Shown here piece by piece: positions 3 to 52,382 of a DNA stretch of 64,000 nt. The position numbers were made by a program, and so were the translations under genes. The first letter of the stretch is position 1. Each line of letters begins with the position of its first letter. The stretch is from Thermodesulfobacteriota bacterium (GTDB lineage: Bacteria; Desulfobacterota_D; UBA1144; Nemesobacterales; JAJCZQ01). The notes under the pieces are model-generated. The model saw nothing but the letters and a program-made list of their open reading frames with translations, was not told the DNA's origin and ran no database searches. Location of the stretch: assembly GCA_965215275.1 (NCBI GenBank), contig OZ244044.1, positions 1,440,001 through 1,504,000 of the forward strand, read 5' to 3'.

Positions 3-1463
3 AGGTCAGAGGTACTGACGGACAACGAACTCATTGAGTTCAGGTACAGCGGGAGGCCGGCTGCTTTTTTAAGAGGTTTCAAGGCTTTTTATTTTTCCAC
101 TATATTTAACTTTATCGTTATAGGGTGGGTAGTATCAGCAATGTCAAAAGTTCTTGGAGTGTTCTTTGGTATTGACAAGGTTTATGCTGTAACGGTATGT
201 CTGGGTATTGCCTTTTTCTACACAATGCTCTCGGGGCTCTGGGGTGTTGTCGTAACCGATTTTATCCAGTACTTTCTGGCACTTGTCGGGACCGTTCTTC
301 TTGCCGTTATTGTGGTGAACTCTCCGGAAATAGGTGGTTATTCTTCATTTATTGAAAAGCTAAATGATATTGACGGTAAACATTTGAAGATGTTTATATC
401 TTCATGCGACACCTGTAATGAGACAGGTTTTATATCGTCTGATCTGTTTACTTTTCTGATATTTGTCACGGTTGTTTGGTGGTCTTCTCATAATGCTGAT
501 GGAGGTGGATATTTTATTCAGAGGTTTTTATCTGCAAAGAATGAAAAACATGCTGTTTTGGGAATGATCTGGTTTGTATTTAATCACTACATAGTGAGGT
601 TCTGGCCATGGGTTGTTGTGGCAGTTGCATCGCTGATCGTATATCCAGTCCCTGAAGTTACCTCGGGAGATCAGGAGACCATTTACGTCTTGATGATAAG
701 AGAGTTTTTAGGTCCTGGATTAAAAGGACTGTTACTCGTGACGTTCATTGCGGCGTTTATGTCCACCATCTCGACGCAGCTCAACCTGGGTGCATCCTAT
801 TTGCTGAACGATGTTTACAGGAGGTTTATTAATAAAAACGGTTCTGATGCCCACTACGTTTCAGCATCCAGACTCCTTACCTTTTTGCTAACAGTTGTAT
901 CGGGGATCATAGCTTTTCAGATCAAGAATATCGGAGACGCATGGATATTTGTCTGGGCAATGAGTTCCGGTATAGGGTTAGTTCTGATATTGAGATGGTT
1001 TTGGTGGAGAATAAACGCATGGTCGGAAATAGCTGCACTTTCATCGTCTCTGTTCTCAATTCTGCTCATTATAGTTTTTACCAGATACATGGGATATGAT
1101 CTGGAGTTTAAATATCAGGTGCTTGTGATCCCTATATCTATAACGTGCTGGGTTATTGCCACGTTTGTAACGGCTCCCGAACCGAAAGAGAAGCTCGGAG
1201 AGTTCTATCAGAAGGTCAGACCTTGGGGGTTCTGGTCGCCGATTTCAAGTATAAGGCCTGAGGTCAGGGTGTCTTCTTTCTTCCCGGTATTGATCAATTG
1301 GCTTCTGGGAAACTGTGCAGTGATCGCCGCATTAACTGGAACTGGTAAGGTAATCTTTGGAAAATTTAATGAAGGTGTTCTTTTGATAGCTTTATCTTTG
1401 TTTGTATCATCGGTACTTTTCTTTCGCTTAAAGAAAGATTTTTCTGGTTCTGATGTTAAATAA
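3..1463 (+). CDS. Sodium:solute symporter family protein, 5' end outside the window
   Basis: Frame open from base 3 (RSEVLTDNELIEFRYSG...AAFLRGFKA); many TM segments; SSS motifs SGLWGVVVTDFIQ, QRFLSAKNE, AAFMSTISTQLN. Confidence 0.85.
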   Translation, partial: RSEVLTDNELIEFRYSGRPAAFLRGFKAFYFSTIFNFIVIGWVVSAMSKVLGVFFGIDKVYAVTVCLGIAFFYTMLSGLWGVVVTDFIQYFLALVGTVLLAVIVVNSPEIGGYSSFIEKLNDIDGKHLKMFISSCDTCNETGFISSDLFTFLIFVTVVWWSSHNADGGGYFIQRFLSAKNEKHAVLGMIWFVFNHYIVRFWPWVVVAVASLIVYPVPEVTSGDQETIYVLMIREFLGPGLKGLLLVTFIAAFMSTISTQLNLGASYLLNDVYRRFINKNGSDAHYVSASRLLTFLLTVVSGIIAFQIKNIGDAWIFVWAMSSGIGLVLILRWFWWRINAWSEIAALSSSLFSILLIIVFTRYMGYDLEFKYQVLVIPISITCWVIATFVTAPEPKEKLGEFYQKVRPWGFWSPISSIRPEVRVSSFFPVLINWLLGNCAVIAALTGTGKVIFGKFNEGVLLIALSLFVSSVLFFRLKKDFSGSDVK

Positions 1464-1496
1464 TGGAATTATATAGTTAAGTTGACAAGAAAGAAC

Positions 1497-1531: not shown

Positions 1532-2755
1532 ATGGTTAGAACGATTACAAGAACTGTAAAGGCAGATAGTGGTTTTCATAAAAGGCTGGATGAATTCTTA
1601 AATCAGCTTACCGATCTGTATAACAGTGCCTTGTACCATAGGTTAAAATCCTGGGATTGGTATGGAAGAACTATCTCTAAATACGAACAGTTTAACGAAC
1701 TAACTGAGGTCCGAGAGCAAGACAAGGGATTTGAAAAGTTTAATGCGGTAGCTCAAAGAAGCGTTCTGGAAAGACTGGATAATGCATATAGTCCTTATTT
1801 GAGCTATTTAAGGAATAAAAAAGCAGGTAAGAAGGTAAGGAAGGTTGGCAGACCTAAATATAAAAGTTCAAACAGACCAGTTCGTTCATTTGAAACAAAC
1901 AATTATAAAAACATAAAGAAGACAGGCAGAAGAACATATTTAACGATAAAGGGACTTGGCAGATTATCTTTCAAAGGTAGTATGCCAGAGTGTGTTTGTT
2001 TGAAAGCACCTAAAACAATAATAAGAGTAATTCAAAGTTCGTTAAGAATTAAGCTCCAGTTTCTGTGTGAGTTTACAGATGAGAAGAAGAGACCTTTGGA
2101 TAAATCCATAGGGATAGATCTTGGAATAACAAACAGATTAGCTTTTTCAGATGGAACTAAAGTTCCCGGTATCAGGATAGACAGGAAGGAACTGAAAAGA
2201 AAGCAAAGAATTGTTTCAAGAGCGGTAAAAGGTTCTGACAGCAGAAAGAAGAAAGTTTTATCGTTAGCGAAGGAATGGGAACGAACTACCGATCGTGAAA
2301 ATAATGCTATACACAGATTAACAACAGAGACCGTAAAGAAGAGTAATCATATAAAATTAGAGGATTTGAATATACAAGGAATGGTAAAGAACCATCATCT
2401 TGCTAAATCCATAACGGAACAGCAATGGGGTAAGATCAAACATCAACTTGCTTACAAAGCCGAGATAGCTGGAGGCAAGCTGGTTTTAGTTAAAGCTCAT
2501 TATACAACAAGAGCCTGTTCTGAATGTGGAAAGATAAATCCAAAACTGCCTTTGTATCAAAGAGTATTTAACTGTATATATTGCGGTTATTCAGAAGACA
2601 GGGATATAAATGCAGGTAAAAATATCAATACTCTTAATGAAGGAGACTTCATGTCGGGCGGGAATAAGGTAGCAATACTCCCGATGAGTGCTAAGAGTAT
2701 CAGATCAAAAGAGAACAGGGATAGAGGAACTCTGCACTCAGAACAGTATAGGTAA
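1532..2755 (+). CDS. tnpB: RNA-guided endonuclease TnpB (IS200/IS605 OrfB-like), 407 aa
   Basis: RuvC-I IGIDLG, RuvC-II KLEDL, zinc ribbon CSEC...CIYC, RuvC-III DRDINA; all three catalytic acidic residues present; no tnpA nearby. Confidence 0.93.
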   Translation: MVRTITRTVKADSGFHKRLDEFLNQLTDLYNSALYHRLKSWDWYGRTISKYEQFNELTEVREQDKGFEKFNAVAQRSVLERLDNAYSPYLSYLRNKKAGKKVRKVGRPKYKSSNRPVRSFETNNYKNIKKTGRRTYLTIKGLGRLSFKGSMPECVCLKAPKTIIRVIQSSLRIKLQFLCEFTDEKKRPLDKSIGIDLGITNRLAFSDGTKVPGIRIDRKELKRKQRIVSRAVKGSDSRKKKVLSLAKEWERTTDRENNAIHRLTTETVKKSNHIKLEDLNIQGMVKNHHLAKSITEQQWGKIKHQLAYKAEIAGGKLVLVKAHYTTRACSECGKINPKLPLYQRVFNCIYCGYSEDRDINAGKNINTLNEGDFMSGGNKVAILPMSAKSIRSKENRDRGTLHSEQYR

Positions 2756-2802
2756 GTTTGTCTACTTAACTATATAATTCCCTTAAATAAGTTCATCTTA
2801 TG
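2650..2802 (+). ncRNA. Predicted TnpB omegaRNA scaffold overlapping the tnpB 3' end, plus about 20 nt putative guide from the flank; boundaries approximate
   Basis: Stems TGAGTGC(2685-91)/GCACTCA(2734-40) and 2747-2774; conserved with compensatory or G-U changes at 44830-44963; canonical omegaRNA position. Confidence 0.65.
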
Positions 2803-3416: not shown

Positions 3417-3417
3417 A

Positions 3418-4774
3418 GTTGTGAATAGCGGGCAGGTTTCAGTCAGTTACAATGGAGGAACAAAATGAGTATAGCAAACAACGGTTGTGAATAGCGGGCA
3501 GGTTTCAGTCAGTTACAATTAATTCCAGTAATAGAACTATCAGATACTTGTTGTGAATAGCGGGCAGGTTTCAGTCAGTTACAATGGTCCGCAGACGAGA
3601 TGCTAAAGGGGATCGAGTTGTGAATAGCGGGCAGGTTTCAGTCAGTTACAATACGAGCTGCAATGATGACTACGGCAATGAAGTTGTGAATAGCGGGCAG
3701 GTTTCAGTCAGTTACAATAAATGGAAAGAGAGTCACCGGCAATAACCGGTTGTGAATAGCGGGCAGGTTTCAGTCAGTTACAATTTTGGATGAACGGAGA
3801 GGAAGTCCCGAACGTTGTGAATAGCGGGCAGGTTTCAGTCAGTTACAATTTATCCGGATGCGTTTAACAATGGAGCGCCGTTGTGAATAGCGGGCAGGTT
3901 TCAGTCAGTTACAATTCTCTGCGGTAAGGTCAAACACATCATACTGTTGTGAATAGCGGGCAGGTTTCAGTCAGTTACAATAAATAACCGCGACTGTCTT
4001 TTCTTTCTTTAGTTGTGAATAGCGGGCAGGTTTCAGTCAGTTACAATCATCTTTTTTGATTATATCATACTCCTTTAGTTGTGAATAGCGGGCAGGTTTC
4101 AGTCAGTTACAATGTTTTAATCGTGGACGCATCATGCGCAGGTGTTGTGAATAGCGGGCAGGTTTCAGTCAGTTACAATAGTTATCCGTTTCGTCTATGT
4201 AGAGCGTGTGGTTGTGAATAGCGGGCAGGTTTCAGTCAGTTACAATTCGTCGTGCTCGCTGTGTCCTGGCTCTTCGTTGTGAATAGCGGGCAGGTTTCAG
4301 TCAGTTACAATGGCACTATTCAACCCCGCTTTCAACAATAGGTTGTGAATAGCGGGCAGGTTTCAGTCAGTTACAATTGGCGAGTTATTTATCTCCATGG
4401 CGGGAGTTGTTGTGAATAGCGGGCAGGTTTCAGTCAGTTACAATGCGTCCCGGCTCCAATGGAATAACTATAAAGTTGTGAATAGCGGGCAGGTTTCAGT
4501 CAGTTACAATAAAGGATGCTTTACAAACTTGGGACTTAAAGTTGTGAATAGCGGGCAGGTTTCAGTCAGTTACAATATAATCCTTGTCTGTTACGTTGTA
4601 ACTCTGGTTGTGAATAGCGGGCAGGTTTCAGTCAGTTACAATACGTTCTTCCATTCTAATACCCTCCCGGTTGTTGTGAATAGCGGGCAGGTTTCAGTCA
4701 GTTACAATAGCGACTCAATGTTCATGGGTCGGCCGGAAGTTGTGAATAGCGGGCAGGTTTCAGTCAGTTACAAT
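3418..4774 (+). CRISPR. Type II-C CRISPR array, 21 identical 36-bp repeats and 20 spacers of 29-31 bp
   Basis: Repeat GTTGTGAATAGCGGGCAGGTTTCAGTCAGTTACAAT, first 3418-3453, last 4739-4774; + orientation inferred from G-U wobbles with the anti-repeat. Confidence 0.98.
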
Positions 4775-4824
4775 ACTTTGCCCGCAACTGCCCTGCCAGC
4801 AAGGGGTTGAGCTTCCCCAACAAA

Positions 4825-5154
4825 TTAAAAAAGAGATATTTGTTGGGGAGTTCTCTCTGGTTTTCTGTGTTTTTTTCCATAAAAAACTTGCATTCGTCCA
4901 AATTGTTTATCCGTTATAGTAATAACTCTAACTTCTCCACGAGGGGGTAAGGCATCTCTGATACGTCCTGAATGAACATAGGCGTTTTCCTCGCTTGCAC
5001 AATGTCTAGCATATACGGAAAACTGCATCATTATAAATCCATCTTGCATTAATGACTTTCTGAATTTTCCATAAGACCGTCTTGCCTGTTTTGTATCGGT
5101 TGGCAGGTCAAACATTACTATTACCCACAAAGTCCTATATCCTCCGAAAGCCAA
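4825..5154 (-). CDS. cas2: CRISPR-associated endonuclease Cas2
   Basis: WVIVMFDLPT...FRKSLMQDGFIMMQFSVYAR; between cas1 and the array. Confidence 0.95.
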   Translation of the reverse strand: MAFGGYRTLWVIVMFDLPTDTKQARRSYGKFRKSLMQDGFIMMQFSVYARHCASEENAYVHSGRIRDALPPRGEVRVITITDKQFGRMQVFYGKKHRKPERTPQQISLF

Positions 5155-5157
5155 TTC

Positions 5158-6066
5158 TTACACCTCAATTCTCATCTGTTTGTTATCTATCAGTTCCGGA
5201 ATTTTCAATGCACTGGGTCCCTCCGAAAATGCTTTCTTCAAACTGACTGCCATGTGCTGGTTCGCGACTATCATGGGGAATTTGGCTGTTTCAAGCCGGA
5301 CATTTTCTGATAAAATGGACAGAAGTGATAATTTTGTCTTTTTGTCAAGTTCAGATATTCCAGATTCTTTCAATTCATAGACTTTTCTATCAACAAGAGG
5401 CCTTAATGGTTCCATTAGATCATCAGCGAGGCACATAGGGTTATATTGATTATGGTGATGAATGCCAAGTGCGGGATGAAGTCCAGTTCCACACAAAGAT
5501 CGGGCAACTGATGCCCTGACCAAGCTGTATCCATAGTTTAGTAAGGAGTTTATTCCGCCTTCTTTGTAATTTCTTGTAAAACCTTTGCCAAACAGTTTTA
5601 ACCAATATATTCTTGCCGCTTGTGCCTCTATATTTTCAGTGTCGCCACTTTTTATTCTTTTCTTCATTTTGGATAGAGGAGAAGGGTCTTTTTTTAAAAA
5701 AGATAAAGTTCGGGCTTGAGCTTCAGTTTTGGCAATTATTATTTTCTGCCAGAGTCGTTTTTTCAGTGGTTTTTTAACACTGGTTTGCATATTAAGAACT
5801 TTGCTGTGGGTGGAATTGCTGGCAATGGGCAATAAGATGGAAACCGGTAAATGTTTCTGGTCGCAGAAGACTATTGTGCAGTTGTTTTCCTGACACGATG
5901 CTATAAGACTTTGAGAAATTGTAATTGAAGGGTTAGCAAGTACCAATATACCCATGTCTTCTACGGGAACACTGCTATCATCCTCTCCTTCTTTTTTGAT
6001 GATCATCTGATAATTTCTCAGATGCAGGTGAGCGGGATTGCTAACCTCAATAATTCTTTTGATCAT
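5158..6066 (-). CDS. cas1: Type II CRISPR-associated endonuclease Cas1
   Basis: EAQAARIYW, NSLLNYGYSLVR, LGIHH, LADDLMEPLRP. Confidence 0.96.
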   Translation of the reverse strand: MIKRIIEVSNPAHLHLRNYQMIIKKEGEDDSSVPVEDMGILVLANPSITISQSLIASCQENNCTIVFCDQKHLPVSILLPIASNSTHSKVLNMQTSVKKPLKKRLWQKIIIAKTEAQARTLSFLKKDPSPLSKMKKRIKSGDTENIEAQAARIYWLKLFGKGFTRNYKEGGINSLLNYGYSLVRASVARSLCGTGLHPALGIHHHNQYNPMCLADDLMEPLRPLVDRKVYELKESGISELDKKTKLSLLSILSENVRLETAKFPMIVANQHMAVSLKKAFSEGPSALKIPELIDNKQMRIEV

Positions 6067-9000
6067 TGGGGTGTTAAATTTTTGGAGATTAGGTGACCAA
6101 TAGCATTTAAGGATTCTTTTTTTACTTTATACTCTGCCATTAATGTGGAAGGTGATTTTGCCAGTTCCAGCCTCTTTTTTTCATCAAGAGGGAGTTTTTT
6201 GAAATCTTTGTCACTTCTTCCGTCTGTATGTATTCGTAATAACAGCTTAATACATTCTCCATTCTTTCCTCTATCAATTTTTCTTACTCTGTAGAAAAAT
6301 TTTTGTCCATCTTTTTGCACACTTACCATGTCGTTTATACATAAGGACATAATCAACTTCCAATCTTCTCCATGATCATTTTTTACGATTGGAGTTTTAT
6401 GAATTCTTATCCGCTTTGCAACTTCCATCGTAGTTACAACTTCACCTTTGAATTTCCCGGTTTTTTTGTTTTTTATAATTTCCACATGGTGATTGTTTCC
6501 ATAGATCATTACACCCAATATTTTTGCATTGTTTTCAATTTTTCTTTGACAATAAGATTGTTCATAAAATTCTTTTGTTCTCCAAACTCTTGCCCGCCGG
6601 ACAATATCTCCTGTTTTAGGATGTTTAAAAGGGTCTTCTTCTAATTTTTTTTGAGCAGTATTTAATCCACCTCTCATATTAACATAGGTTTCAAAACCTT
6701 CCTTGATTACCGGACATAGTATGTTTTTAAGGTCTTTATCCGTCATGTCAGTCAGATTTTTACGGACAACAATACCTGTCTTACCATTCTCTTTTCTTAT
6801 TCCATAAACCGTTTCTTCATGAAGTGCCCCCGTCAGTTTTCTGTTTGTCGAATGTGAAACGATCATTTGCTTTACAGCGTCTCCCAAACCCTCTCTAATA
6901 TCGTCAAGAGGTGGAGGGACTTCTATACCGTGTTCTGAAGGTATAGAAGCATCATCTGCCTTTGATGCAAGATGAACTATTTGTTTGTATAAACTGCGAT
7001 TTGTAAGTGCAATTACGGTTGCGTCAATTGCATGGTGTCTGTGATCCGTGCGTTCCTTTTTTTCAGTATCACCGAGAATACTGTTTAATCCCCACTGATG
7101 CCGAAGCCAGCCTGTTGCCCCACCTTTTGTGAACGTTACATCACAGCCAAGGGTTCTCATATATTTGCCAGTTTCTTTTGCAATGTAGCGTGCGTCGCTC
7201 AGTTGATTGTTGATAAAATCATCATCAATTTCTTCTGCCTGAATGTTTTTACGTTTTTTAGCAGGATAATTGTCGTTTGTTATTATGCCTTCAATAGTGT
7301 CCCACTGTGGCGTTTCTCCAAATGCTTCCCAAGGCGTTCTGTTGCCCTTCTTTTGGTTTTCTTCGGCTAAACACAAGACTTTGTTCATGTAAGAATTGTC
7401 AAGGGTTCTGCTGTATGGAAGTATATGATCTACTTCGGTCTCATGTGTCCATAAGGTTGTTAATTTGATTATTTTTCCGCTGTAGGAGCATTTCAACTCA
7501 CTTTCTTTCCACAACCTGTATTTTAATTTATCCTCATAATTTATATTTTCTCTGAGAGATAGATGAGGATTTTGTTCACGGATTTCTTTGTATCGTTCCT
7601 CTGCTTCCTCATTTGCCTTTGTGTTATCCTTTTGTGTTTGCAAATATCTTTTATACCTTTCGGTGTTCATTTCCAGGTCTCGTGCCATTTCTATACGTAT
7701 CGCGTTTGGTTTTCCATATTCCTTGATAATTGCATTTACAACGCGGCGAACTTCAAAAAGAGCTTTGGTAACTATAGGATTTGGGATAAAGGGTATTTCC
7801 CTAAGGATGTCTTTGTTGGCAGTTATAGGTTTCGTGATACCTTCGTATCCAGCGAGTTGAACGGCACCTTTTTCTTCAGTAAGTTCGCTTTCCTTATGAT
7901 AAACTCTGCCTTCTTTGAGATAAGGGAGGATTTTGTTAACTGCTTTCAACGATAGATTCCCATGCCCATTCTCCAGTTCCAGAACTGCAAGTTTTACTGC
8001 TTTTTCCAAGTCAAAATTCCAGTGATTTTTGAGTCGTTCTTTCAGTCCTTTTTTGGATTTGTAAGAAATCAGGTCTTCAACGAGCTGTTTCTGTTTTTCT
8101 TCGTTCCAAGAATCCCATTCATCTCCGATAATTTTCCTTATTTTACAAGCCGTTGTGTTTCCCTTGATACCTTTCCTGTTTTTTCCTTCGACTTTTTCCA
8201 GATTGAATTTCGTTTTCTTTTTCAGATCAAGCAGGTCCTTCTTTTTCAGAGCTGCCCATGTAAGACTTTCGTTCTTTTCCAGAGCTGCAGCTATCAGTTT
8301 TTTCTTCTCTAAAGTTGGCTTCACGTCTGTTTCCCCTGTCTCAAAGTCAAACCAGCTCAAATTGTTTATATCCTGCCAGTAGCGAAACTGTTGAAACTCC
8401 AGCCGTCCGAGATGAACTCTTTTTCTGCTTGGTTCAAGTGAACATTTCCCTATTGTTTTTCTGTCCCATTTTATTGGTCTTTGAAAAAATATAATTTTTT
8501 CAATAGCTTCTTTTATCTCTTTTGTGTAAAGGTTTGGATTGAGAGATGATTGTTTCGCAAAGATTTTGTCAAGCTCATCCTGATACATTTTTCTTTCTGT
8601 TCTTCGGTCGTGAAATTTTCCTCTGTTGCGTTTGCGGGACAACGTTGCAAGGTATTCCCCGACGGTTCTCATTCCTGCTTCTTCCATTTTTTCATAGAGT
8701 TCTGTAATATCTTTTTTGAAATCACTTTCTTCTTTATCGGATGGTTTTGCAGCATCAACTTCATCTTCCCTATCAAGAAATTCCTGCACTTCAGTATCTT
8801 CTCGCAGATCTCCAAATCCTGTCTTGCGACTGCTGAGAAATCCACGGCGTGTTCCCATGTGCAGTATCGCACGGCCAAATTCATAGGGTGACAGTTCTTC
8901 GTCCAGTGCTTTTGCCCTTATACGGTAAGGGTCTCCAAGTTCGTTAAGTTCAACTTCAGGACTGGGTTTTCCTTTAAGGGTATCAGGTAAAAATCCTTTG

Positions 9001-9254
9001 CTTATGAGATAGTTTCTCAAACGCGTCTTGCGTCTGTGGCGTCTTTCTATAACCCTTCTCATAAGACGCATATTGCGCCGCTTCTGATTTTTCGGAGTGG
9101 GTGTTTTATCTTCTACCGAACGGATAAATATGCGGCTTCCACAGTCAATTAGTTTTTCAGGTTTTCCATCTTGTTCCTCAACGACGCTCCAGCCGATGGA
9201 GTTCGTTCCCATGTCAATGCCCACCGAATACTCTTTCAGTTTGTTTTTTCCCAA
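6063..9254 (-). CDS. cas9: Type II-C Cas9, 1063 aa (TTG start)
   Basis: RuvC-I GIDMGTNSIGW, Arg-rich bridge helix, HNH EVDHILPYSRTLDNSYMNKVL, RuvC-III HRHHAIDA; no csn2 or cas4 in the locus. Confidence 0.97.
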   Translation of the reverse strand: MGKNKLKEYSVGIDMGTNSIGWSVVEEQDGKPEKLIDCGSRIFIRSVEDKTPTPKNQKRRNMRLMRRVIERRHRRKTRLRNYLISKGFLPDTLKGKPSPEVELNELGDPYRIRAKALDEELSPYEFGRAILHMGTRRGFLSSRKTGFGDLREDTEVQEFLDREDEVDAAKPSDKEESDFKKDITELYEKMEEAGMRTVGEYLATLSRKRNRGKFHDRRTERKMYQDELDKIFAKQSSLNPNLYTKEIKEAIEKIIFFQRPIKWDRKTIGKCSLEPSRKRVHLGRLEFQQFRYWQDINNLSWFDFETGETDVKPTLEKKKLIAAALEKNESLTWAALKKKDLLDLKKKTKFNLEKVEGKNRKGIKGNTTACKIRKIIGDEWDSWNEEKQKQLVEDLISYKSKKGLKERLKNHWNFDLEKAVKLAVLELENGHGNLSLKAVNKILPYLKEGRVYHKESELTEEKGAVQLAGYEGITKPITANKDILREIPFIPNPIVTKALFEVRRVVNAIIKEYGKPNAIRIEMARDLEMNTERYKRYLQTQKDNTKANEEAEERYKEIREQNPHLSLRENINYEDKLKYRLWKESELKCSYSGKIIKLTTLWTHETEVDHILPYSRTLDNSYMNKVLCLAEENQKKGNRTPWEAFGETPQWDTIEGIITNDNYPAKKRKNIQAEEIDDDFINNQLSDARYIAKETGKYMRTLGCDVTFTKGGATGWLRHQWGLNSILGDTEKKERTDHRHHAIDATVIALTNRSLYKQIVHLASKADDASIPSEHGIEVPPPLDDIREGLGDAVKQMIVSHSTNRKLTGALHEETVYGIRKENGKTGIVVRKNLTDMTDKDLKNILCPVIKEGFETYVNMRGGLNTAQKKLEEDPFKHPKTGDIVRRARVWRTKEFYEQSYCQRKIENNAKILGVMIYGNNHHVEIIKNKKTGKFKGEVVTTMEVAKRIRIHKTPIVKNDHGEDWKLIMSLCINDMVSVQKDGQKFFYRVRKIDRGKNGECIKLLLRIHTDGRSDKDFKKLPLDEKKRLELAKSPSTLMAEYKVKKESLNAIGHLISKNLTPQ

Positions 9255-9277
9255 TTTCTCATTCCTGTAAAAAAGAT

Positions 9278-9313
9278 TTGACTATATGTTTCAGTTCACA
9301 TAATATTATAACA
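9278..9313. promoter_or_regulatory. Overlapping divergent promoters for tracrRNA (+) and cas9 (-)
   Basis: Plus strand TTGACT(9278-83), 17 bp, TAATAT(9301-06); minus strand extended -10 TGTTATAAT (9313-9305). Confidence 0.6.
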
Positions 9314-9433
9314 TTATTGTGACTGACTGAAACCTGCACAGACATTTTGCTATTCATAACAAGAAGCAAATGTTTCGCAGGAAAGCCTTTCAAGGTACCT
9401 AATAGCCCTCACGCGTAGCTGGGGGCTTTTTTT
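9313..9433 (+). ncRNA. tracrRNA
   Basis: Anti-repeat ATTGTGACTGACTGAAACCTGC (9316-37) and GCTATTCATAAC (9349-60), complementary to the repeat with two G-U pairs; ends in a hairpin plus T run. Confidence 0.9.
9404..9433 (+). terminator. Intrinsic terminator of tracrRNA
   Basis: AGCCCTCA/TGGGGGCT stem followed by a T run. Confidence 0.75.
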
Positions 9434-17375: not shown

Positions 17376-18482
17376 ATGAACTATAAAGACATATTTCAGG
17401 AGACCTATCTTAACAACAGCGTTGAACAGTGGCTTATTGCACTTGGAGTTTTGGTTGGTTTAAGCCTTGCACTGTTCACCCTTAACAGGCTGTTTATCAA
17501 ACGCTTTGAAAAAATTTCACGGAAGACCAATAACCAGCTTGATGATCTGGTCGTAAAACTTTTATCTAAAACCAACACTTTGATGCTTATAGTTGCTTCT
17601 CTTTACGTTGGTTCTCTTTTCTTAAATATCAATGAAAGCATGACGTCTGCAAGAAAGAGCATGGTGGTGATAGCCTTGCTCTTCCAGGTTGCATTTTGGT
17701 GTTCGGGCATAATTTCTTACTATACGAACAGACTGCTTAAAGAAGATGAGGGCAAGACTGGGAAAAAGATCACACATATAAAAGCAGTCAGCTTTGTTAT
17801 AGAGGTGTTGTTATGGGTGACCATTATACTTCTCATTGCAAACAATCTGGGGTTCAATATCACTACTTTGATAGCAGGTCTTGGAATTGGAGGTATAGCG
17901 ATAGCCCTGGCACTTCAGAGCATTCTTGGTGATATAATTGCGTCACTCTCAATAATTTTAGATAAACCATTTGAGATCGGTGATTACATAGTAATTGGCG
18001 ACTTGCAAGGGGACGTTGAGAACATAGGTTTAAAAACCACCAGGGTGAAGAGTCTCTCGGGTGAACAGCTGGTTTTTTCCAACAACGACTTGCTTCAAAG
18101 CAGGATAAAGAACTATAAAAAGATGACAGCACGCAGAGTAGTATTCACGCTTGGAGTCGTATATGACACTTCGTATGAAAAGCTGAAGCAGATCCCTCAA
18201 ATATTAAAAGATATTATTACTTCAGTGGATAAAGCGACATTTCTGCGTGCTCACTTCTTCTCCTATGGAGATTTTTCCCTGAACTTTGAAGTAGTTTACA
18301 ACGTTGACGACAATGAATATGGCCAGTATATGGAAGCACAGCAAAACATCAATCTTGCAATACTGAAAAAATTCAGAGAGGAAGGTATAGAGTTTGCCTA
18401 TCCAACTCAAAAGCTTCTTGTTGACAGGGCTGATAATAACGCAGAAATAAAAACCGAATTAAGGGAAAACAGCAGTGGCTAA
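17376..18482 (+). CDS. Small-conductance mechanosensitive channel (MscS family)
   Basis: AGLGIGGIAIALALQ, DKPFEIGD, IGLKTTR, GIEFAYPTQ. Confidence 0.92.
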   Translation: MNYKDIFQETYLNNSVEQWLIALGVLVGLSLALFTLNRLFIKRFEKISRKTNNQLDDLVVKLLSKTNTLMLIVASLYVGSLFLNINESMTSARKSMVVIALLFQVAFWCSGIISYYTNRLLKEDEGKTGKKITHIKAVSFVIEVLLWVTIILLIANNLGFNITTLIAGLGIGGIAIALALQSILGDIIASLSIILDKPFEIGDYIVIGDLQGDVENIGLKTTRVKSLSGEQLVFSNNDLLQSRIKNYKKMTARRVVFTLGVVYDTSYEKLKQIPQILKDIITSVDKATFLRAHFFSYGDFSLNFEVVYNVDDNEYGQYMEAQQNINLAILKKFREEGIEFAYPTQKLLVDRADNNAEIKTELRENSSG

Positions 18483-19857
18483 AAAAGCATGGGGAGGAAG
18501 GTTTACAAGATCTACCAGCAAGGTGGCAGAAAAGTTCTCCGAGTCGGTAAGTTTTGACAGGCGGCTCTATGAAGAGGATATAAGGGCAAGCATTGCACAT
18601 GTTCGTATGCTTGCAAAGCAGAGTATCATTCCAAAGACTGACGCTGATAAGATCATCAAGGGGCTGGGCTCTGTAAAAAAGGAAATAATGTCGGGGAACT
18701 TTCCTTTCAGGGAAGAGTACGAGGATATTCATCTCAATATAGAAAAGCGTTTAATTGAAAAAATTGGGAAAGTCGGTGGAAAGATCCATACCGCCAGAAG
18801 TAGAAATGATCAGGTTTTAGTGGATATTCGTCTTTATATACTGAAAGAAGGCGATAATGTTCTGAAACTGCTGAAAAAGCTGTCAGGTAATTTTATCAAG
18901 TTGGCGGAAAAAAATATGGATGTCGTGATGCCGCTGTATACCCACCTGCAAAGGGCACAGCCCGTGCTTCTTGCTCATCATATGCTGGCGTTCTTTGAAA
19001 TGTTCAGACGCGACGCTGGCAGGTTGAGAGACTGTTTAGAGAGGACCGACGTAAATCCCTTGGGAACTGGAGCAGGGGCGGGGACCTCTTTTCCCGTTAA
19101 CAGGAACTACACGGCTTCCCTGCTCGGATTTAACGCGGTATCCTGCAACAGTATTGACACTGTAAGCGATAGAGACTTTATAGCTGAGTTCATATTCTGC
19201 TGTTCTCTGCTTATGATGCATCTGTCGCGACTGTCTGAAGAACTTGTACTCTGGTCCTCAAAGGAGTTTGACTTTATTGATCTTGGGGATGATTTTACAA
19301 CGGGTTCGAGCATAATGCCTCAGAAAAGAAATCCTGACATGGCAGAATTAACTCGTGGTAAAATAGCAAGGGTATATGGAAATCTGAATGCCATCCTTAC
19401 CCTCCTTAAAGGTCTTCCTCTTTCCTATAATCGTGATATGCAGGAAGATAAGGAACCTCTTTTTGATACGATCGACACCGTCAAATTGTGTCTTGAACTT
19501 AATAGTGAGATGCTGAAGAAAATAAAGTTTAAAAGAGAAAACTTACGCAAGTCCCTTACCGATGGATTTGTAACTGCAACTGATATTGCAGATTATCTGA
19601 CCAGAAAGGGTATGCCTTTCAGAAATGCGCATGAGACCGCTGGGGCGATAGTCAGTTATGCGGAAAAACAGGGCAAGCAACTGGAAGAGCTGTCATTGGA
19701 AGAAATGACAGGTTTTTCAAAATTAATAGAAGTTGATGTCTTTAACTGTATATCAATTCAGGGGTCCGTGGAGAGTAAAACCTCCTACGGAGGCACATCC
19801 CCTAAAAACGTTAAGGCCATGTTGCTTGATGCTAAAAAAGAAATTTCTGATTTTTAA
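18475..19857 (+). CDS. argH: Argininosuccinate lyase
   Basis: WGGRF, HTARSRNDQV, THLQRAQP, GSSIMPQKRNPD. Confidence 0.96.
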   Translation: MAKKAWGGRFTRSTSKVAEKFSESVSFDRRLYEEDIRASIAHVRMLAKQSIIPKTDADKIIKGLGSVKKEIMSGNFPFREEYEDIHLNIEKRLIEKIGKVGGKIHTARSRNDQVLVDIRLYILKEGDNVLKLLKKLSGNFIKLAEKNMDVVMPLYTHLQRAQPVLLAHHMLAFFEMFRRDAGRLRDCLERTDVNPLGTGAGAGTSFPVNRNYTASLLGFNAVSCNSIDTVSDRDFIAEFIFCCSLLMMHLSRLSEELVLWSSKEFDFIDLGDDFTTGSSIMPQKRNPDMAELTRGKIARVYGNLNAILTLLKGLPLSYNRDMQEDKEPLFDTIDTVKLCLELNSEMLKKIKFKRENLRKSLTDGFVTATDIADYLTRKGMPFRNAHETAGAIVSYAEKQGKQLEELSLEEMTGFSKLIEVDVFNCISIQGSVESKTSYGGTSPKNVKAMLLDAKKEISDF

Positions 19858-19886
19858 AGTTTATGATACAGTCTATTTTTATAAAA

Positions 19887-19964
19887 GGCCCTATCGTCTA
19901 GCTTGGTTCAGGACGCAGCCCTCTCAAGGCTGAAACACGGGTTCAAATCCCGTTGGGGCTGCCA
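19887..19964 (+). tRNA. tRNA-Glu (CTC)
   Basis: Anticodon arm CAGCC-CTCTCAA-GGCTG, GGTTCAAATCC T arm, CCA end. Confidence 0.95.
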
Positions 19965-20068
19965 GAAGATTATTAAATGGTTTTTAATTTCCAGTCCGTA
20001 CCGTTTGTTTAAGTTGACTCTATTTGGATGTGGCTGGCGAATACTGAAAGACTTGAGCACGATAATGT

Positions 20069-20844
20069 TTAGAAATCATAATTAAAAATTTCCAGGTCCT
20101 GTGCGTATTTTTTAGCAACCATTTTGCGCAGCTCGTCATCGTAATAGTTCTGGTAGGGACCGTGTTTGGTTGAATTTAGTTTTTCTGGCTTAATATCATC
20201 AGATAGTGAAATCTGTTCTTTTACATAGGAAAAGTCCTGTTCGAAGTTCTCAAGACGTCCGATGAAATCTAATGTCTCCAGGTCCAGCAAATAATGCTGG
20301 GGTACAAAGTGGCCCTCACAATGCTTATCGGGTATTTGGGTTACGAAGTGTACAAAATCACTGAAAGACATTTTTTTGAAGCCCACCAAATTCCCATATC
20401 CTTCTACAAACCCTCTATGTTCTCCATTTATAGCCCAACGATTGGTAGGGTTACGCAATTCTGGGTTATCAACTTTATCTTTATAACAGGAAAGCAGTCT
20501 ATCATATGGGTTTCTGACAAATGTGAAGTGGAAATAATCTTTATATATTGTGGACCTGTTTTCAGGGAAAACTACTCTGGGAATAGGTGTTGTGTGAAGT
20601 TCCGTCCCTTGCTCAATTTCGTCTATTGTAATCATAAAGGATATGATAGTTGTAAATGCAGCTTTAGGAACTGGATAATAGATGAATTTGTGTTTGTGAG
20701 AAACGCGGCCGTCGTGTACTGGCTTTAGAGGAGGATACTTTGTTATTGTAAAAGACCTTTTTTCATTCTTCTTTGGCTTAAGAAAATCCCCCCCCCCCTT
20801 TTTTTTCCCCGTAATGTTTTGTACAATGCTTTAATTATTTTCAT
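20069..20844 (-). pseudogene. Sulfotransferase family 2, copy 1, frameshifted at an A8-G11 tract (20788-20806)
   Basis: ATG 20844 homologous to the copy 2 start; YYPVPKAAFTT and FVRNPYDRLLS motifs in the downstream frame; +1 nt restores the ORF. Confidence 0.8.
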
Positions 20845-20912
20845 TTTGTATTTTCAAGTTATCTGAGAGTTTTTGTGTGCGAATCGAGTTGGATTGTTAC
20901 CTTGCTTCTACT

Positions 20913-20963
20913 TGAAATTATAAGAGATTCATAAAGTTGTATCAAGCAATCTTTATAATTTCA
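20913..20963. mobile_element. 51-bp mini inverted-repeat element (MITE-like)
   Basis: TGAAATTATAAGAGATT ... AATCTTTATAATTTCA; homologous to 21811-21861. Confidence 0.5.
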
Positions 20964-21013
20964 TTTATTTGAATGTGTCTGGCGAATACTGAAAGACTTG
21001 AACATAATAATAG

Positions 21014-21742
21014 TTAGAAGTCATAATTGAAGATTTCCAGGTCCCGTGCGTATTTTTTAGCAACTATTTTGCGCAGTTCGTCATCGTAATAGTTCTGGTA
21101 GGGAAAGTGTTTACTTGCCATCAGTCTTTTTGGCCTGATATAACCAGATAGTGGAATCTGTTCTTTTACATAGGAAAAATCCTGTTCGAAGTTCTCAAGG
21201 CGTCCGATGAAATCTAACTTCTCCAGGTCCAGCAAACGATGCTGGGGTGACCAGTGAGGGTCACAATGCTTATCGGGTATTTGGTTTACGAAGTGTACAA
21301 AATCACTGAAAGACATTTTTTTAAATTCTACATTCCCATATCCTTTTATAAACTCTCTATTTTCTCCATTAATAAACGCATGATCGTTACGGTTAACCGA
21401 TTTTGGATGATATATCTTTTCTATGTAACAGGAAAGCAGTCTGTCATATGGATTTCTAACAAATGCGAAGTGGAAATAATCTTTATATCTAGCGGACCTG
21501 TTATCAGGGAAATATAACGTGGGCATAACTGTTGTGTGAAGGGTAGGACCTTGCTCAATTTCATCTATTGTAATCATAAAGGATTTGATAGTTGAACATG
21601 CAGCTTTAGGAACTGGATAATAGATGAACTTATGCTTGTGAGAAACGAAGCCGTGTACTGGAGGCATATGAGGATATTTTAAAGGGATTTGTCTAATTTT
21701 TGGTTTAAGAATCTCTTTGTATAATTCTTTAATTGTTTTCAT
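21014..21742 (-). CDS. Sulfotransferase family 2, copy 2 (intact)
   Basis: PAPS-binding motifs PVPKAACSTI and FVRNPYDRLLS; DPHWSPQ; FIGRLENF. Confidence 0.88.
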   Translation of the reverse strand: MKTIKELYKEILKPKIRQIPLKYPHMPPVHGFVSHKHKFIYYPVPKAACSTIKSFMITIDEIEQGPTLHTTVMPTLYFPDNRSARYKDYFHFAFVRNPYDRLLSCYIEKIYHPKSVNRNDHAFINGENREFIKGYGNVEFKKMSFSDFVHFVNQIPDKHCDPHWSPQHRLLDLEKLDFIGRLENFEQDFSYVKEQIPLSGYIRPKRLMASKHFPYQNYYDDELRKIVAKKYARDLEIFNYDF

Positions 21743-21810
21743 TCTGTATTTTTAAATTATTTGAAAGTTTTTATGTGCGACCCGAATTGTATTGTTACCG
21801 TGCTGCTACA

Positions 21811-21861
21811 TGAAACTATAAGGGATTCATAAAGTTGTATCAAGCAATCTTTATAGTTCCC
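21811..21861. mobile_element. 51-bp mini inverted-repeat element (MITE-like)
   Basis: TGAAACTATAAGGGATT ... AATCTTTATAGTTCCC; right end reads GGGAACTATAAAGATTG, close to the 44743 MITE end. Confidence 0.55.
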
Positions 21862-21911
21862 TTTATTTGAATGTGGCTGATGGATGCTGAGAGGCCTGAA
21901 CACGATAACAG

Positions 21912-22672
21912 TTAGAAATCATAATTAAAGATTTCCAGGTCACGTGCGTATTTTTTAGCAACCATTTTGCGCAGTTCGTCATCGTAGTAGCTCTGGTAAG
22001 GACCGTGCTTGGTTGTCATTCTTTTTTCTGGCTTAATATCATCAGATAGCGAAATCTGTTCTTTTATATAGGAAAAATCCTGTTCGAAGTTCTCAAGGCG
22101 TCCGATGAAATCTAACGTCTCCAGGTCCAGCAAACGATGCTGAGGCGAAAAGTGAGGGTCACAATGCTCGTCTGGTATTTTGGTTACGAAGTGTACAAAA
22201 TCACTGAAAGACATTTTTTTAAAGCCCATCAAATTCCCGTATCCTTTTACAAACTGTCTATCTTCTCCATTAATAAAATAACGATTGGTAAGGTTAGATA
22301 ATGCTGGGTTATAAACTTTTTGTATGTAACAGGAAAGTAATCGATCATATGGGTTTCTAACAAATGTGAAGTGGAAATAATCTTTATATCTAGCGGACCT
22401 GTGTTCAGGTCGAAATATTCTGGGCATAATCGTTTCGTGAATGCTTTTTGGATCTCGCTTAATTTCGTCTATTGTAATAATAAAGGATATGATAGTTGTA
22501 GATGCAGCTTTAGGAATTGTATAATAGATGAATTTATGTTTGTGAGAAATGTATATGAGTGTTGGACGAGAAGCGTATTTTGTTATTGTAAAAGACTTTT
22601 TCTCACTCTTTTTGGCTTGAGAATACCCCCCCCCATCCGTAATGTTTTGTATAATGCTTTAATTGCTTTCAT
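21912..22672 (-). pseudogene. Sulfotransferase family 2, copy 3, frameshifted at or near a G9 tract (22626-22634)
   Basis: ATG 22672 (MKAIKALYK) runs into TAA; +1 nt gives a continuous frame through YYTIPKAASTT into ORF 21912..22427. Confidence 0.8.
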
Positions 22673-22732
22673 TCTGTATATTCAAATTATCTGAAAGTTT
22701 TTGCGTGCGACCCGAGTTGGATTATGACCTTG

Positions 22733-24085
22733 CTACTGTATAAGATCATAGTAATCCAAACCCAGATGCGTGATCAGGTCTTCCCCCATAATATACCTCA
22801 GAGTATTTTTAAGTTTCATAAGTTGAATAAAAAGGTCATGTTCAGGATATAGAACTTTGCTGACCATAGGGCTTTTAAAGTAGAACGAGAGCCATTCCTG
22901 AATACCGTACATACCTGCTCTATGTGCAAGGTCCAGAAATAGTACCAGATCCAAAACGATAGGAGCTGCAAGGATGCTGTCTCTGCACAGGAAGTTTAAC
23001 TTGATCTGCATAGGATAATTAAGCCAGCCGAAAATATCTATGTTGTCCCAGGCTTCTTTTTCGTCGCCCCTTGGGGGATAGTAATTGATCCGCACCTTAT
23101 GATAGAGGTTGGAATAAAGTTCGGGGTATAAATGGGGCTGAAATATAGTTCCAAGAACACTGAGCTTGCTTTCCTCTTTGGTTTTAAACGACCATGGATC
23201 ATCTAATACCTCACCGTCCCTGTTGCCAAGTATATTAGTTGAAAACCATCCGTTAACTCCAAGCATTCTGCTTTTAAATCCGGGTGCCAAGATAGTTTTC
23301 ATCAACGTCTGTCCCGTTTTGAAATCCTTTCCGGCTATGGGAACTTTATTTTCTTCTGCAAGACGTTCCAGTGCGGGTACGTCGGCGGACAGATTCGGAG
23401 CACCGTTAGCGTAAGGAACCCCACATTTTATTGCAGCATAGGCATAGATCATGCTCGGGGGTATATCTTTGCTGTTCTTTTTTAAGCCTTCTTCAAAACT
23501 TTTTAAGGTTTTGTGAACTTTTTTGGGCTTAATAAAGACTTCAGTGCTGCCACACCAGATCATAACCAGTCTGTCAGCTTTATTCTGTTCTTTAAACCCG
23601 TTTATATCGTCAATAAGCTGCTGGGCAAGGTCCATATTTGTCTTGCCTTTTTTGACGTGTCTGCCTGAAAGGTTCTTAACGTATTGCTGATCGAATACTG
23701 CCTTCATAGGCGATAGTTTTTTTAGCCTGCTTTTTAGGTCGTCAAGCAGTTCTTTCTGTAACACGCCAGCTTTCAGAGCAGCTTCATAACAGTTGTCCGG
23801 AAATATGTCCCACCCACCAAATATAAGGTTTTTGCAGTTTGCAAGAGGTACAAGGTCTTTAATTAACGGGGTTTTCTCCTGAGTTCTTTTCCCAAGCCTA
23901 ATAGTGCTCATCTGGGTTAACGAACCTATAGGTTTGCCGATCCCCTTGTTGATCGCTTCCACGCCGGCAGTAAAGGTGGTGCTGACCGCCCCGCTCATAC
24001 CTGGAAGTAAAACGCCGAGTTTGCCCTTGGGCGGCTTTATATTGATCTTACTACCGTTTTCTGACTTTCTGGAGAGTTTAGACAA
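22733..24085 (-). CDS. ino1: Inositol-3-phosphate (myo-inositol-1-phosphate) synthase
   Basis: GKDFKTGQT, STNILGNRDG, YYPPRGDEKEAWD, RDSILAAP. Confidence 0.92.
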   Translation of the reverse strand: MSKLSRKSENGSKINIKPPKGKLGVLLPGMSGAVSTTFTAGVEAINKGIGKPIGSLTQMSTIRLGKRTQEKTPLIKDLVPLANCKNLIFGGWDIFPDNCYEAALKAGVLQKELLDDLKSRLKKLSPMKAVFDQQYVKNLSGRHVKKGKTNMDLAQQLIDDINGFKEQNKADRLVMIWCGSTEVFIKPKKVHKTLKSFEEGLKKNSKDIPPSMIYAYAAIKCGVPYANGAPNLSADVPALERLAEENKVPIAGKDFKTGQTLMKTILAPGFKSRMLGVNGWFSTNILGNRDGEVLDDPWSFKTKEESKLSVLGTIFQPHLYPELYSNLYHKVRINYYPPRGDEKEAWDNIDIFGWLNYPMQIKLNFLCRDSILAAPIVLDLVLFLDLAHRAGMYGIQEWLSFYFKSPMVSKVLYPEHDLFIQLMKLKNTLRYIMGEDLITHLGLDYYDLIQ

Positions 24086-44283: not shown

Positions 44284-44407
44284 CAATGCAGTCTCTTTCC
44301 AGAATGTTGAATTAATTAAGATCTTTCCCATCAAAATATCTGCTGGCTGCTTATGAGAGAAGGAACGGTATCTTTCTGTTAAAGTCCTTTTTTCCTTTGG
44401 TTTATAA

Positions 44408-44689
44408 TTATTTTGCCATCCCGGCATATGCAACCGGTCGGGTGTCTCCGAACGTCTTTACAAGTGTTTCAAGGAATTCTTCGGAATGCTCGGAGCAGAA
44501 AAAATAGGTTAGAACAGTGTTACCGGACTTGGTTACGCTTAATACCTGGTAGTGGCGGCTGCAAAGGTCTTTGTTGCACATTACACATTCTTTTATCGCC
44601 AGTCTTTCTCCTTCAAGAGTACATCTTTCCCCGTCCTCTCCTATGTTGTCACACTGATATACCTCAACGGATATTTTCCTTTTTGACAT
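44408..44689 (-). CDS. Small Cys/His-rich (probable zinc-binding) hypothetical protein
   Basis: CVMCNKDLCSRH and FCSEH; SD-like AGGAGA upstream. Confidence 0.65.
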   Translation of the reverse strand: MSKRKISVEVYQCDNIGEDGERCTLEGERLAIKECVMCNKDLCSRHYQVLSVTKSGNTVLTYFFCSEHSEEFLETLVKTFGDTRPVAYAGMAK

Positions 44690-44742
44690 CTATTCTCTCC
44701 TTATAGTTTTATATACACTCCATTTTTTACATTAATAAGTAT

Positions 44743-44963
44743 AGGAATTATAAAGATTGATTTACAAGAAATAAAATTTTTAATAATAAGCATTAGGAAA
44801 ATCAGAATATCCATAACGGATATAAATCTGTATCGGGTGGAGCAGTTAAAATGGGGAAAAGACTCCCGGTGGGTGCTATGGGTATTTTAAAATCAAAAGA
44901 ACAAGAGGAACTTTGCACTCAGAACGGTAAAGGTATTGTCGTCGGACGATCTTTATAGTTCTC
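44743..44963 (+). mobile_element. 221-bp MITE carrying a TnpB omegaRNA-like scaffold but no ORF
   Basis: Ends AGGAATTATAAAGATTG and (rev. comp.) GAGAACTATAAAGATCG; degenerate TSD ATAAGTAT/ACAAGCAT; blocks 20/24 and 29/32 identical to the tnpB 3' end. Confidence 0.8.
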
Positions 44964-45100
44964 ACAAGCATATAAGATTGACGGCGATATGATCAGTCTG
45001 AATAACAGCGGTATTTAACTGATTTGCAATCCAACGAGATTTAGTAGACAGTATTACCCGCACAAATTATATTTTGTAAAATTTATTAAGCTATATAAGA

Positions 45101-46069
45101 ATGATCTCCACCAATCAAGCTATTAACGGGACTCTGAAGTTTTTATACAATCGGATCACGAAAAGGCCCACACTTGTAAATCTTGAAGTAACAAAGCTGT
45201 GTAACGCTACGTGTGATTTTTGTGATTACTGGCAGACAAAGCACGAGGAAAGAATTACCGATTACAGACCCGTAATTAAAAAAATTAATCCTCTGGTGAC
45301 GGTAATTACCGGCGGGGAGCCAATGTTAAGAAAGGACCTTCCTGATATTGTCAGGCAGATCAAAGAGTGTTCAATGTTTATTTTTGTCTCTATGGTAACA
45401 AAAGGGGACCTGTTGACCGTTGATAAGGCGAAAGAACTTTTTGAGGCAGGTATGGACCAGATAGCAGTTTCTCTGGATTTTCCCGGCAAGACCCACGATA
45501 CGTATCGCGGGATACCTGGTCTCTGGGACCATATTTCTGAATTGATGCCTAAACTTGCTGAAGTTTTTCCAAAGAAAACAGTGGTTTTAAATACAATAAT
45601 TATGGAGGATAACCTTGATCAGGTCGTAAAGATAGCAGAGAAAGCAAGAGAGTGGGGTGTCAGGATATCTTTTAGTTCTTACTCCGTGATGAAAACAAAC
45701 AACGAAGGTCATTTTATCAGGAAAAAGCAGTTACAGAAAGTTAAGGACGTGATCGATGAACTTATAGAACTGAGGCAACAGTGGAAGGGAACGATTCTGT
45801 CCACGGAATATTATTTAAGGATGGTACCTGCTTATTTTGAAAACGGTGGAGTTCCAGACTGCTTTGCTGGTGTAAGTCACCTTCAGGTTACCCCGAGTGG
45901 GCATTTAAAAAGGTGTTCGGAAATGCCCGTTGTTGCACGCTACGATGAATACAGCCCTGAACTGTTTGACAAAACAAAGTGTGAGGCATGCTGGTACAGT
46001 TGCAGAGGTGAGACACAGAGCCCTGCCAACGTTAGAAGAATGCTTGAATACATGGGGGTCTGGCTTTAA
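45101..46069 (+). CDS. Radical SAM protein with C-terminal Cys cluster (SPASM/twitch-like)
   Basis: CNATCDFC, ITGGEP, C-terminal CEACWYSC. Confidence 0.87.
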   Translation: MISTNQAINGTLKFLYNRITKRPTLVNLEVTKLCNATCDFCDYWQTKHEERITDYRPVIKKINPLVTVITGGEPMLRKDLPDIVRQIKECSMFIFVSMVTKGDLLTVDKAKELFEAGMDQIAVSLDFPGKTHDTYRGIPGLWDHISELMPKLAEVFPKKTVVLNTIIMEDNLDQVVKIAEKAREWGVRISFSSYSVMKTNNEGHFIRKKQLQKVKDVIDELIELRQQWKGTILSTEYYLRMVPAYFENGGVPDCFAGVSHLQVTPSGHLKRCSEMPVVARYDEYSPELFDKTKCEACWYSCRGETQSPANVRRMLEYMGVWL

Positions 46070-50140: not shown

Positions 50141-50200
50141 TAATGTGGTCCTTTAAAGAGCATTTCTGAGAGAGAATTGGAGTCTGCTGCTAATAAAAAA

Positions 50201-50608: not shown

Positions 50609-50762
50609 TTTCTTTATTAAAGGGGATTTTGTCGTTAGATCTGTACTATAACTACTCTCTTGGTTGTGAAAACTCTAACTTATCCCCGTTAGAAGCGTTG
50701 TATTTGCCACGGGATCAGCGGTGGGTGCAGCCTTTTAAATGATCGTTAATAAATAGTTTCTC

Positions 50763-52211: not shown

Positions 52212-52382
52212 CGTTTCTGTCTCTGATCTCTAATGATGTTTTCATACTATCTGCTTATGAGTTTTTACAGTATTTCCTTTAGCTTCGCAAGCAGGACCTG
52301 TCGCATTGCCGCCATGGTAACCAGTCTTAACTGTCTTCGGGAAGCACCTTCAACTTAAAAAAGAGGTTCATTTCAGCGGCCG

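Follow-up and report, generated by a model that had tools for sequence, protein, structure and literature searches.

The window, the whole stretch of 64,000 nucleotides analysed here, harbors at 1464-2782 an element of 1319 bp that has 25-bp IS1595-type TIRs and contains tnpB as its single ORF. Its predicted omegaRNA would close with a hairpin folded from the right TIR and continue into a guide that starts with the TSD, while a near-invariant G is found immediately outside the left TSD in this and related elements. On balance, we consider it probable, from sequence comparison and from analogy with known systems, that TnpB cuts empty sites preceded by (T)G by means of this TIR-folded, TSD-started guide, that transposases act in trans and that homing retains the copies.

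A tnpB-only element with IS1595-type ends

The feature is real and all its coordinates are correct. Its 8-bp TSD, TTAAATAA, occurs at 1456-63 and 2783-90, flanking both TIRs ( Table 1 ). In two genomes of the same family (G003 and G004) the transporter gene directly neighbors a nuoI-like gene and only one related 8-mer lies between them, in regions that are ~78% identical and are not direct ancestors of the occupied site. Because the empty site in these genomes has one such 8-mer, the repeat is a true duplication. A search for the empty allele of the 1464-2782 copy recovered no joint in 4 contig runs, all of the same organism and from one study; as contigs drop rare variants, this does not count as evidence that the allele is absent.

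Table 1. Coordinates of the element, its predicted RNA parts and related loci (window positions unless the genome is named).
Feature	Position	Strand	Remarks
Predicted TAM TG, G near-invariant	1454..1455	+	Host DNA directly 5' of the left TSD
Left TSD copy TTAAATAA	1456..1463	+	Upstream SSF transporter gene has its stop codon here
Left 25-bp IS1595-type TIR	1464..1488	+	23/25 identical to the right TIR; first base T, not G
tnpB, 407 aa	1532..2755	+	PF01385 and PF07282; NF040570 above cut-off; last ~38 codons overlap the RNA scaffold
Predicted stem 1, TCGGG 2654-58 / CCCGA 2680-84	2654..2684	+	Encloses the 5' pseudoknot strand GGGAA 2660-64
Predicted stem 2, TGAGTGC 2685-91 / GCACTCA 2734-40	2685..2740	+	MFE; encloses variable stem 3
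Predicted terminal hairpin (stem 4 equivalent)	2746..2775	+	3' arm is the right TIR; folding and covariation
Right 25-bp TIR	2758..2782	+	Repeat search; TTCCC 2778-82 is the predicted 3' pseudoknot strand
Predicted guide	2783..2802	+	Right TSD 2783-90 plus flank; would read TTAAATAAGTTCATCTTATG
Decayed tnpB-less relic with RNA scaffold remains	44743..44963	+	TSD 6/8, TIR 16/25; pseudoknot strands degraded
Further tnpB-family loci, own genome	735945-737502, 1616480-1619604, 202418-203706, 714634-715929, 1724035-1725337		

In TnpB the RuvC residues D196, E277 and D358 and a C4 zinc finger are intact, and in an alignment of relatives the catalytic D-E-D and the zinc finger are kept in 49/49 proteins. 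By family match, D-E-D and zinc finger, the protein is a nuclease of the TnpB (OMEGA) family. It scores below the cut-offs of the IS200_TnpB and IS607_TnpB profiles, and the closest solved folds are the TnpBs of ISFba1 and ISDra2 (8iaz/8h1j). In the predicted structure, residues 370-407 have pLDDT values below 50.

The element has the GG-starting TIRs and 8-bp TSD of the IS1595 family, and its TIR is identical at 17-21 of 25 positions to those of transposase-bearing elements. The IS1595-type ends are presumably ISNwi-like. A DDE_Tnp_IS1595 transposase is absent from within the element and only tnpB is found inside, so that it is classed as a non-autonomous derivative of the family. It differs from IS200/IS605 elements, which have hairpin ends, no TSD and a Y1 transposase, in having TIRs, an 8-bp TSD and a DDE background, and it equally lacks the profile of IS607 elements (no TIRs, no TSD, serine transposase). 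According to the accessible part of PMC8101967, GG-starting TIRs and 8-bp AT-rich TSDs are common to the IS1595 family; the present element departs from the family in lacking a transposase in cis, in carrying a nuclease as cargo, in an RNA that would reuse the right TIR and in a flank motif confined to one side.

The genome contains eight near-full copies (86-100%) at different sites and one truncated copy. It also yields 28 IS1595 transposase matches, with zinc-ribbon and DDE_Tnp_IS1595 domains, whose elements share the TIR type; a search of the same genome gave one weak Y1 match, located elsewhere, and no serine resolvase. Since none of the 34 transposase-bearing IS1595 elements with resolved ends carries tnpB, mobility in trans is what we infer: the shared ends and the 28 matches suggest that IS1595 transposases from other loci of the genome are the likely agents of its movement.

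Several further features were observed among the copies. The left TIR of the element in the window begins with T at position 1464, and a near-identical twin (99.4%) occurs at genome positions 155905-157223; given this T, the 1464-2782 copy may be less mobile than its twin. Copies of tnpB family A (L012, L024, L026-L029), with TnpB 85-99% identical, have three TIR subtypes; from one subtype to the next, the two ends vary in concert with the 5' arm of the RNA hairpin, and the sequences suggest switching between transposases. IS1595-type ends also enclose two further tnpB families (~484 aa and ~400 aa), whose copies have A at -1, mostly as TA; two of these copies are in tandem, 16 bases apart. 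Also, IS1595-type cargo elements occur in the same genome at 17470-21955, 1028600-1033127, 1496306-1500591 and 1812584-1815955, some of them without a transposase.

The tnpB clade was found in 23/37 genomes of the sister family and IS1595 transposases in 31/37; two of the sister-family TnpB proteins are named Candidatus Dadabacteria by their sources. Four of 80 distant tnpB loci were automatically called as having TIRs and TSDs, of which L273 (Paracoccaceae) and L282 (Acidobacteriota) are real and L309 and L326 look like chance; at L269 and L270 the right end is present and the left end unresolved. An RNA-only mini-element of 257 bp (L261:1717-1973, genome G045) has TIRs, a TSD matching at 7/8 positions and TG in front, and is a candidate guide source in trans. 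A search of 120 genomes for the RNA-end pattern also gave false positives: L247, L252-254 and L257 fall in a conserved host gene, which we take to be tyrS, and L231 and L258 were rejected as well.

Elsewhere in the window, the region 3417-9337 holds a CRISPR array with 36-bp repeats, followed by minus-strand ORFs that we take, from sequence alone, to be cas2-, cas1- and cas9-like (the latter of 1063 aa), with an anti-repeat at ~9300-9337. A 32-bp inverted repeat (94%, 356 bases apart) at 50195-50614, whose end resembles IS1595-type TIRs, is probably another mini-element. Four related long repeats with ~280-base internal units and three tandem paralogous genes occupy 42700-59900 and 20000-22800.

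Predicted RNA scaffold and guide start

As in OMEGA systems, a structured scaffold is predicted, with covariation, to overlap the 3' end of the gene and to end at the right end of the element. The first-pass annotation had paired TATAGGTAAGT (2747-2757) with ACTTAACTATA (2764-2774) and placed the 3' arm inside the right TIR; the coordinates and the placement proved correct, with 10 of 11 positions paired. The annotation did not mention the G2752/A2769 mismatch, and an extra wobble pair (G2746-U2775) extends the hairpin. The upstream stem that it described as perfect, stem 2, is indeed so over 7 bp, and has three compensated forms among relatives. The outer pair of stem 1 varies as T-A, G-C or A-T across 78 RNAs.

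Folded alone, the region is only modestly more stable than chance (z -1.96; 9/200 shuffles as stable), and support for the RNA structure therefore comes from the relatives. An Rfam scan of 2400-2900 gave no match and a promoter/terminator scan gave counts at chance level. The interior of the TIR differs among relatives and the 5' arm of the hairpin changes along with it. On average, hairpins with their own TIR reach -6.3 kcal/mol versus -3.0 kcal/mol when joined to the TIRs of other elements (chimera mean), the native tail beating the chimera mean in 62/65 distinct 3' tails. Covariation supports the structure as well: in 45 aligned RNAs chosen from 79, pairing is kept in 91% of cases over the six pairs at the base of the hairpin and the five of the pseudoknot, and 37 double changes are counted. 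No shuffle out of 500 matched this, and slid partners were 31-61% paired, controls that are somewhat flattering because the structure had been named from the same sequences.

The predicted pseudoknot, absent from the first-pass annotation, joins GGGAA (2660-64) to the last five TIR bases (2778-82). Its covariation is thin: two of the five pairs are invariant, double changes occur in 1 and 2 of the 45 rows, and the fifth pair is broken in 12/45. The transposase would conserve the terminal CCC anyway.

The scaffold resembles that of ISDra2, for which the part of PMC10097598 available to us gives the same protein fold, a scaffold over the tail of the gene and the same order of stem 1, pseudoknot, stem 2 and terminal hairpin. 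In the ISDra2 omegaRNA, according to the same portion, -5U to -3C pair with -103A to -105G, positions -6 and -2 form non-canonical pairs and a tetraloop occupies -20 to -17. A guide starting at 2783 puts U-U-C at -5 to -3, as in the ISDra2 register, and 7 unpaired bases follow the hairpin in 57/65 folded tails, the last 5 bases being forced unpaired. Register and spacing, both like those of ISDra2, therefore favor the first TSD base as guide base 1. Thus, the scaffold most likely includes the right TIR up to its last base, and the claim of the first-pass annotation that the guide begins with the TSD and matches the empty site is most likely right, judging from covariation, the predicted pseudoknot and the ISDra2 register, with a start one base later as its rival. 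The sole 14-nt match to the predicted guide in the genome is the filled right junction, where it is preceded by TCCC.

A one-sided flank motif that follows the nuclease

The flanks were compared at 45 independent insertion sites. A total of 119 tnpB loci was examined, of which 8 family-B loci were set aside, 52 passed (both ends found and a TSD of at least 7/8) and 59 failed owing to a missing end, a mismatched TSD, a contig edge or an unrelated tnpB; the 52 passing loci plus one truncated copy, less 8 duplicates, give the 45 sites, whose elements are mutually related although the insertions are separate. Controls were drawn from 63 loci, at 34 of which the ends of a transposase-bearing element could be resolved; 2 of these were dropped, and the remaining 32 were joined by 9 from the same genome.

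G stands immediately 5' of the left TSD at 44/45 sites (1.85 bits) versus 7/41 transposase-bearing IS1595 controls (Fisher 7e-16). One position further out, at -2, 27 of the 45 sites have T, so that TG precedes the TSD, and 13 have G. The mirror base 3' of the right TSD is C in only 11/45, so the bias is one-sided. Within the TSD, base 1 holds 0.58 bits, positions 5-8 are no more informative than in controls, and base 2 is A or T in 45/45, which fits a TAM reaching into the TSD.

These counts modify the expectations of the first-pass annotation. It had noted correctly that TGATG precedes the left TSD here and CATTA that of the 44743 element, and had taken this difference as a sign that the usual equation of TAM and insertion motif may fail; that doubt is not borne out by the counts. 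The 44743 element is a poor comparator because it is a decayed tnpB-less relic. Its suggestion of a relaxed TAM was half right, in that the motif has only 1-3 bases, and its other suggestion, a TAM within the AT-rich TSD, could hold for at most one base. A TAM wholly inside the TSD is disfavored because the filled right junction would then also carry a TAM before a perfect match.

The G is not brought by the element, since at start-codon sites it belongs to the host ATG, and insertion at start codons was ruled out as its cause: with these sites removed, G is still found at 35/36 sites versus 7/32 controls. In TIR-matched controls it occurs in 3/17, against a background of 0.21. Within the same genome, G is found in 8/8 unambiguous copies of family A (one further copy, whose TSD is shifted, is ambiguous), A stands at -1 in 10/10 copies of families B and C, and cargo-only elements have G at 0/8 ends. 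Because families B and C carry A in the same genome, the motif follows the nuclease and not the transposase. Outside the 45 sites, G also precedes the RNA-only MITE L261 and the elements at L273 and L282. Taken together, a short TAM-like motif exists outside the TSD, and the comparisons indicate that the G is likely TnpB's own target signal.

At a number of loci of the sister genus (L013, L014, L015, L047, L051, L054, L081 and L134, also L016 and L020) the element is inserted directly behind a host start codon. An ATG in frame with the host gene is provided by the right TIR, 2-5 codons before the element ends, so that the host protein would gain only a few residues; insertion behind a start codon is seen in 8/18 elements with a TIR ATG versus 0/26 without. 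At these sites the predicted guide corresponds to the first codons of the host gene. From their N-termini, the genes concerned are presumably ugd-, hemL- and trpC-like.

Related geometry has been described before. In the available portions of Altae-Tran et al. 2023 (PMC10691335), TnpB branches DDE-1 to DDE-6 are reported with inverted repeats and solo copies moved in trans, and because an SI legend places a TA motif of DDE-5 systems 8 bp upstream from where the element is predicted to end, the geometry is already in print. DDE-5 shares the 8-bp placement of the motif with the elements studied here, and the flanks of families B and C end in TA or AA. The motif itself differs, being TA in DDE-5 versus (T)G in the 1464-2782 family, and DDE-5 is among the branches with rearranged catalytic sites, whereas the TnpB analysed here has the canonical D-E-D. 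IS1595 does not occur in the main text of that paper and appears in its SI PDF only in the HMM list; for DDE-borne TnpBs, the accessible portions contained no RNA fold, guide register, TSD or controls. A 2026 review (PMC13565253), in its accessible sections, lists ISL2, IS630 and IS1031 and calls for mechanistic work. Among the titles and abstract openings covered, subscription journals being mostly outside, no experimental study of an IS1595-borne TnpB was found.

Probable homing, its alternatives and significance

The cycle that we favor would proceed as follows. The RNA would read through the right TIR into the flank, so that the guide would consist of TSD plus flank and match the empty site; the TAM would be (T/G)G directly 5' of the TSD, and the empty site, carrying (T)G, would be cut. 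The element would spare itself: at the right junction the full guide match follows CCC rather than G, the terminal TIR C taking the place of the TAM G, and at the left filled junction the TAM would be present but usually with only 8 matching bases (self-match of at most 8 nt in 40/45, never more than 11). Excision through the 8-bp repeats would leave an empty site that is refilled, by break-induced recombination, only if a TAM is present; copies without one would be lost. For ISApl4, a member of IS1595, a circle formed through the 8-bp repeats has been reported (PMC12561309, available in part). Since the transposase does not appear to choose G, we infer that the bias is produced after insertion. 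A TAM 5' of the left end and the homing logic are common to this scheme and to ISDra2-type elements, as far as the accessible text on the latter goes. The motif of IS605 elements is common to their transposase and nuclease, and retention is higher with TnpB (Meers et al., bioRxiv 10.1101/2023.03.14.532601, in the part available); unlike in IS200/IS605, the TAM here would be 1-3 bases long, not chosen by the transposase, and separated from the element by the TSD. In a toy model, 92-98% of copies have a TAM if 3-10% of excised copies reinsert, and 45% if all do, so that loss of most excised copies would be required for retention to suffice. Against retention, IS1595 copies that lack tnpB have survived in these genomes, and G is already present beside the youngest copies with tnpB.

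This demand for high loss, together with the G of the youngest copies, keeps in play the reading that the G arises at insertion, TnpB-RNA binding the TAM without a guide match and steering several borrowed IS1595 transposases to a point 8 bases away. We judge it unlikely, although the cleanness of the 44/45, the presence of G in all of the youngest copies (0.4-5% diverged) and the switch of motif with TnpB family within one genome speak for it, as does the binding of TAM sites by dead TnpB with little seed requirement (accessible part of 10.1101/2023.03.14.532601). Retention can yield the same numbers, however, the nuclease is intact throughout the alignment, and the three TIR subtypes of family A imply that several transposases would have to be steered. 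In Cas12k the nuclease is not intact. Nor would insertion be directed by the guide: in 51 nearest-neighbour pairs from 70 sites, TSD positions 2-4 and 5-8 and the right flank are unlike those of the nearest relative (p 0.07-0.9), and only position 1 is shared. The same position bears on where the guide starts. Nearest relatives share TSD base 1 more often than expected (0.76-0.83 vs 0.45) and do not share bases 2-8, and for this reason a guide starting from the second TSD base, in an otherwise identical system, has to be considered; base 1 would then belong to the scaffold and the TAM would be TG plus base 1, i.e. TGT here and TGA in one sister clade. This one-base shift is rather unlikely, yet it has points in its favor. 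In a quick tree, base 1 is clade-specific and heritable and positions 2-8 are not, with T at 9/9 family A and 8/8 family B right ends and A in most of one g10 subclade; also, if all three terminal C are paired, the result is a five-pair pseudoknot with one free base, equivalent to ISDra2 -6 to -2 plus -1, and the flanking base absorbed into the scaffold in IS607 is a precedent (PMC10711439, as far as available). The U-U-C register and 7-base spacing fit base 1 of the TSD instead, base 1 is far less constrained than the G at -1 over the 45 sites (0.58 vs 1.85 bits), and host selection can explain part of its pattern because the insertion points follow start codons or coincide with stop codons.

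Alternatives that deny TnpB a TAM outside the TSD fare worse. Transposase preference or host selection could account for the G, with TnpB lacking a real TAM or being a passenger, given that 8/44 sites lie directly behind a host start codon and that a multi-copy IS1595 in genome G060 has an outside G at ~40% of its ends, by eye and on both sides. The persistence of G at 35/36 non-start sites, its occurrence in only 3/17 TIR-matched transposase-bearing elements and a one-sided bias at symmetric ends make this quite improbable. A Fanzor-like layout, in which the whole right TSD belongs to the scaffold, the guide begins after it and the TAM lies within it, is described for Fanzors with short TSDs in the accessible parts of PMC10711439 and PMC13565253, and the Fanzor1 and Fanzor2* systems of the former resemble the present elements in that a cut-and-paste transposon carries a TnpB-family nuclease whose RNA scaffold includes the TIR. 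In Fanzors a short TSD joins scaffold and TAM, whereas here a long, variable TSD appears to act as the guide seed, alongside a retained pseudoknot and a catalytic E of the canonical kind; a fixed TSD in TAM or scaffold, with the pseudoknot lost or the E shifted, was not found, E277 being in its usual place. As the conserved G would stand 9 bases from the guide, when ISDra2 contacts five TAM positions, as conservation at TSD positions 5-8 does not exceed that of the controls, and as a TAM confined to the TSD would be found in front of the target even at the filled right junction, this layout is hardly credible.

The favored reading, in which the nuclease homes by a TSD-started guide, bears on a question that PMC13565253, in the sections at hand, leaves open, namely how RNA-guided nucleases work with prokaryotic DDE transposases given a variable TSD and a fixed TAM. 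The arrangement is known in outline, DDE-borne TnpBs being in print. The elements suggest a solution other than that of Fanzors, in which the pseudoknot is kept, the TSD serves as guide seed and a very short TAM lies outside it. Should it be confirmed, the predicted (T)G TAM of their ~400-aa nucleases, far shorter than the five bases that are usual, would be of practical value. If steering were true, the system would represent an early form of CRISPR-associated transposition that has two parts, is independent of the guide and relies on a TnpB whose natural TAM is near-minimal and NG-like. Unlike in IS605, the specificities of transposase and nuclease appear separable in these elements, so that whether homing alone imprints a TAM on insertion sites becomes directly testable.
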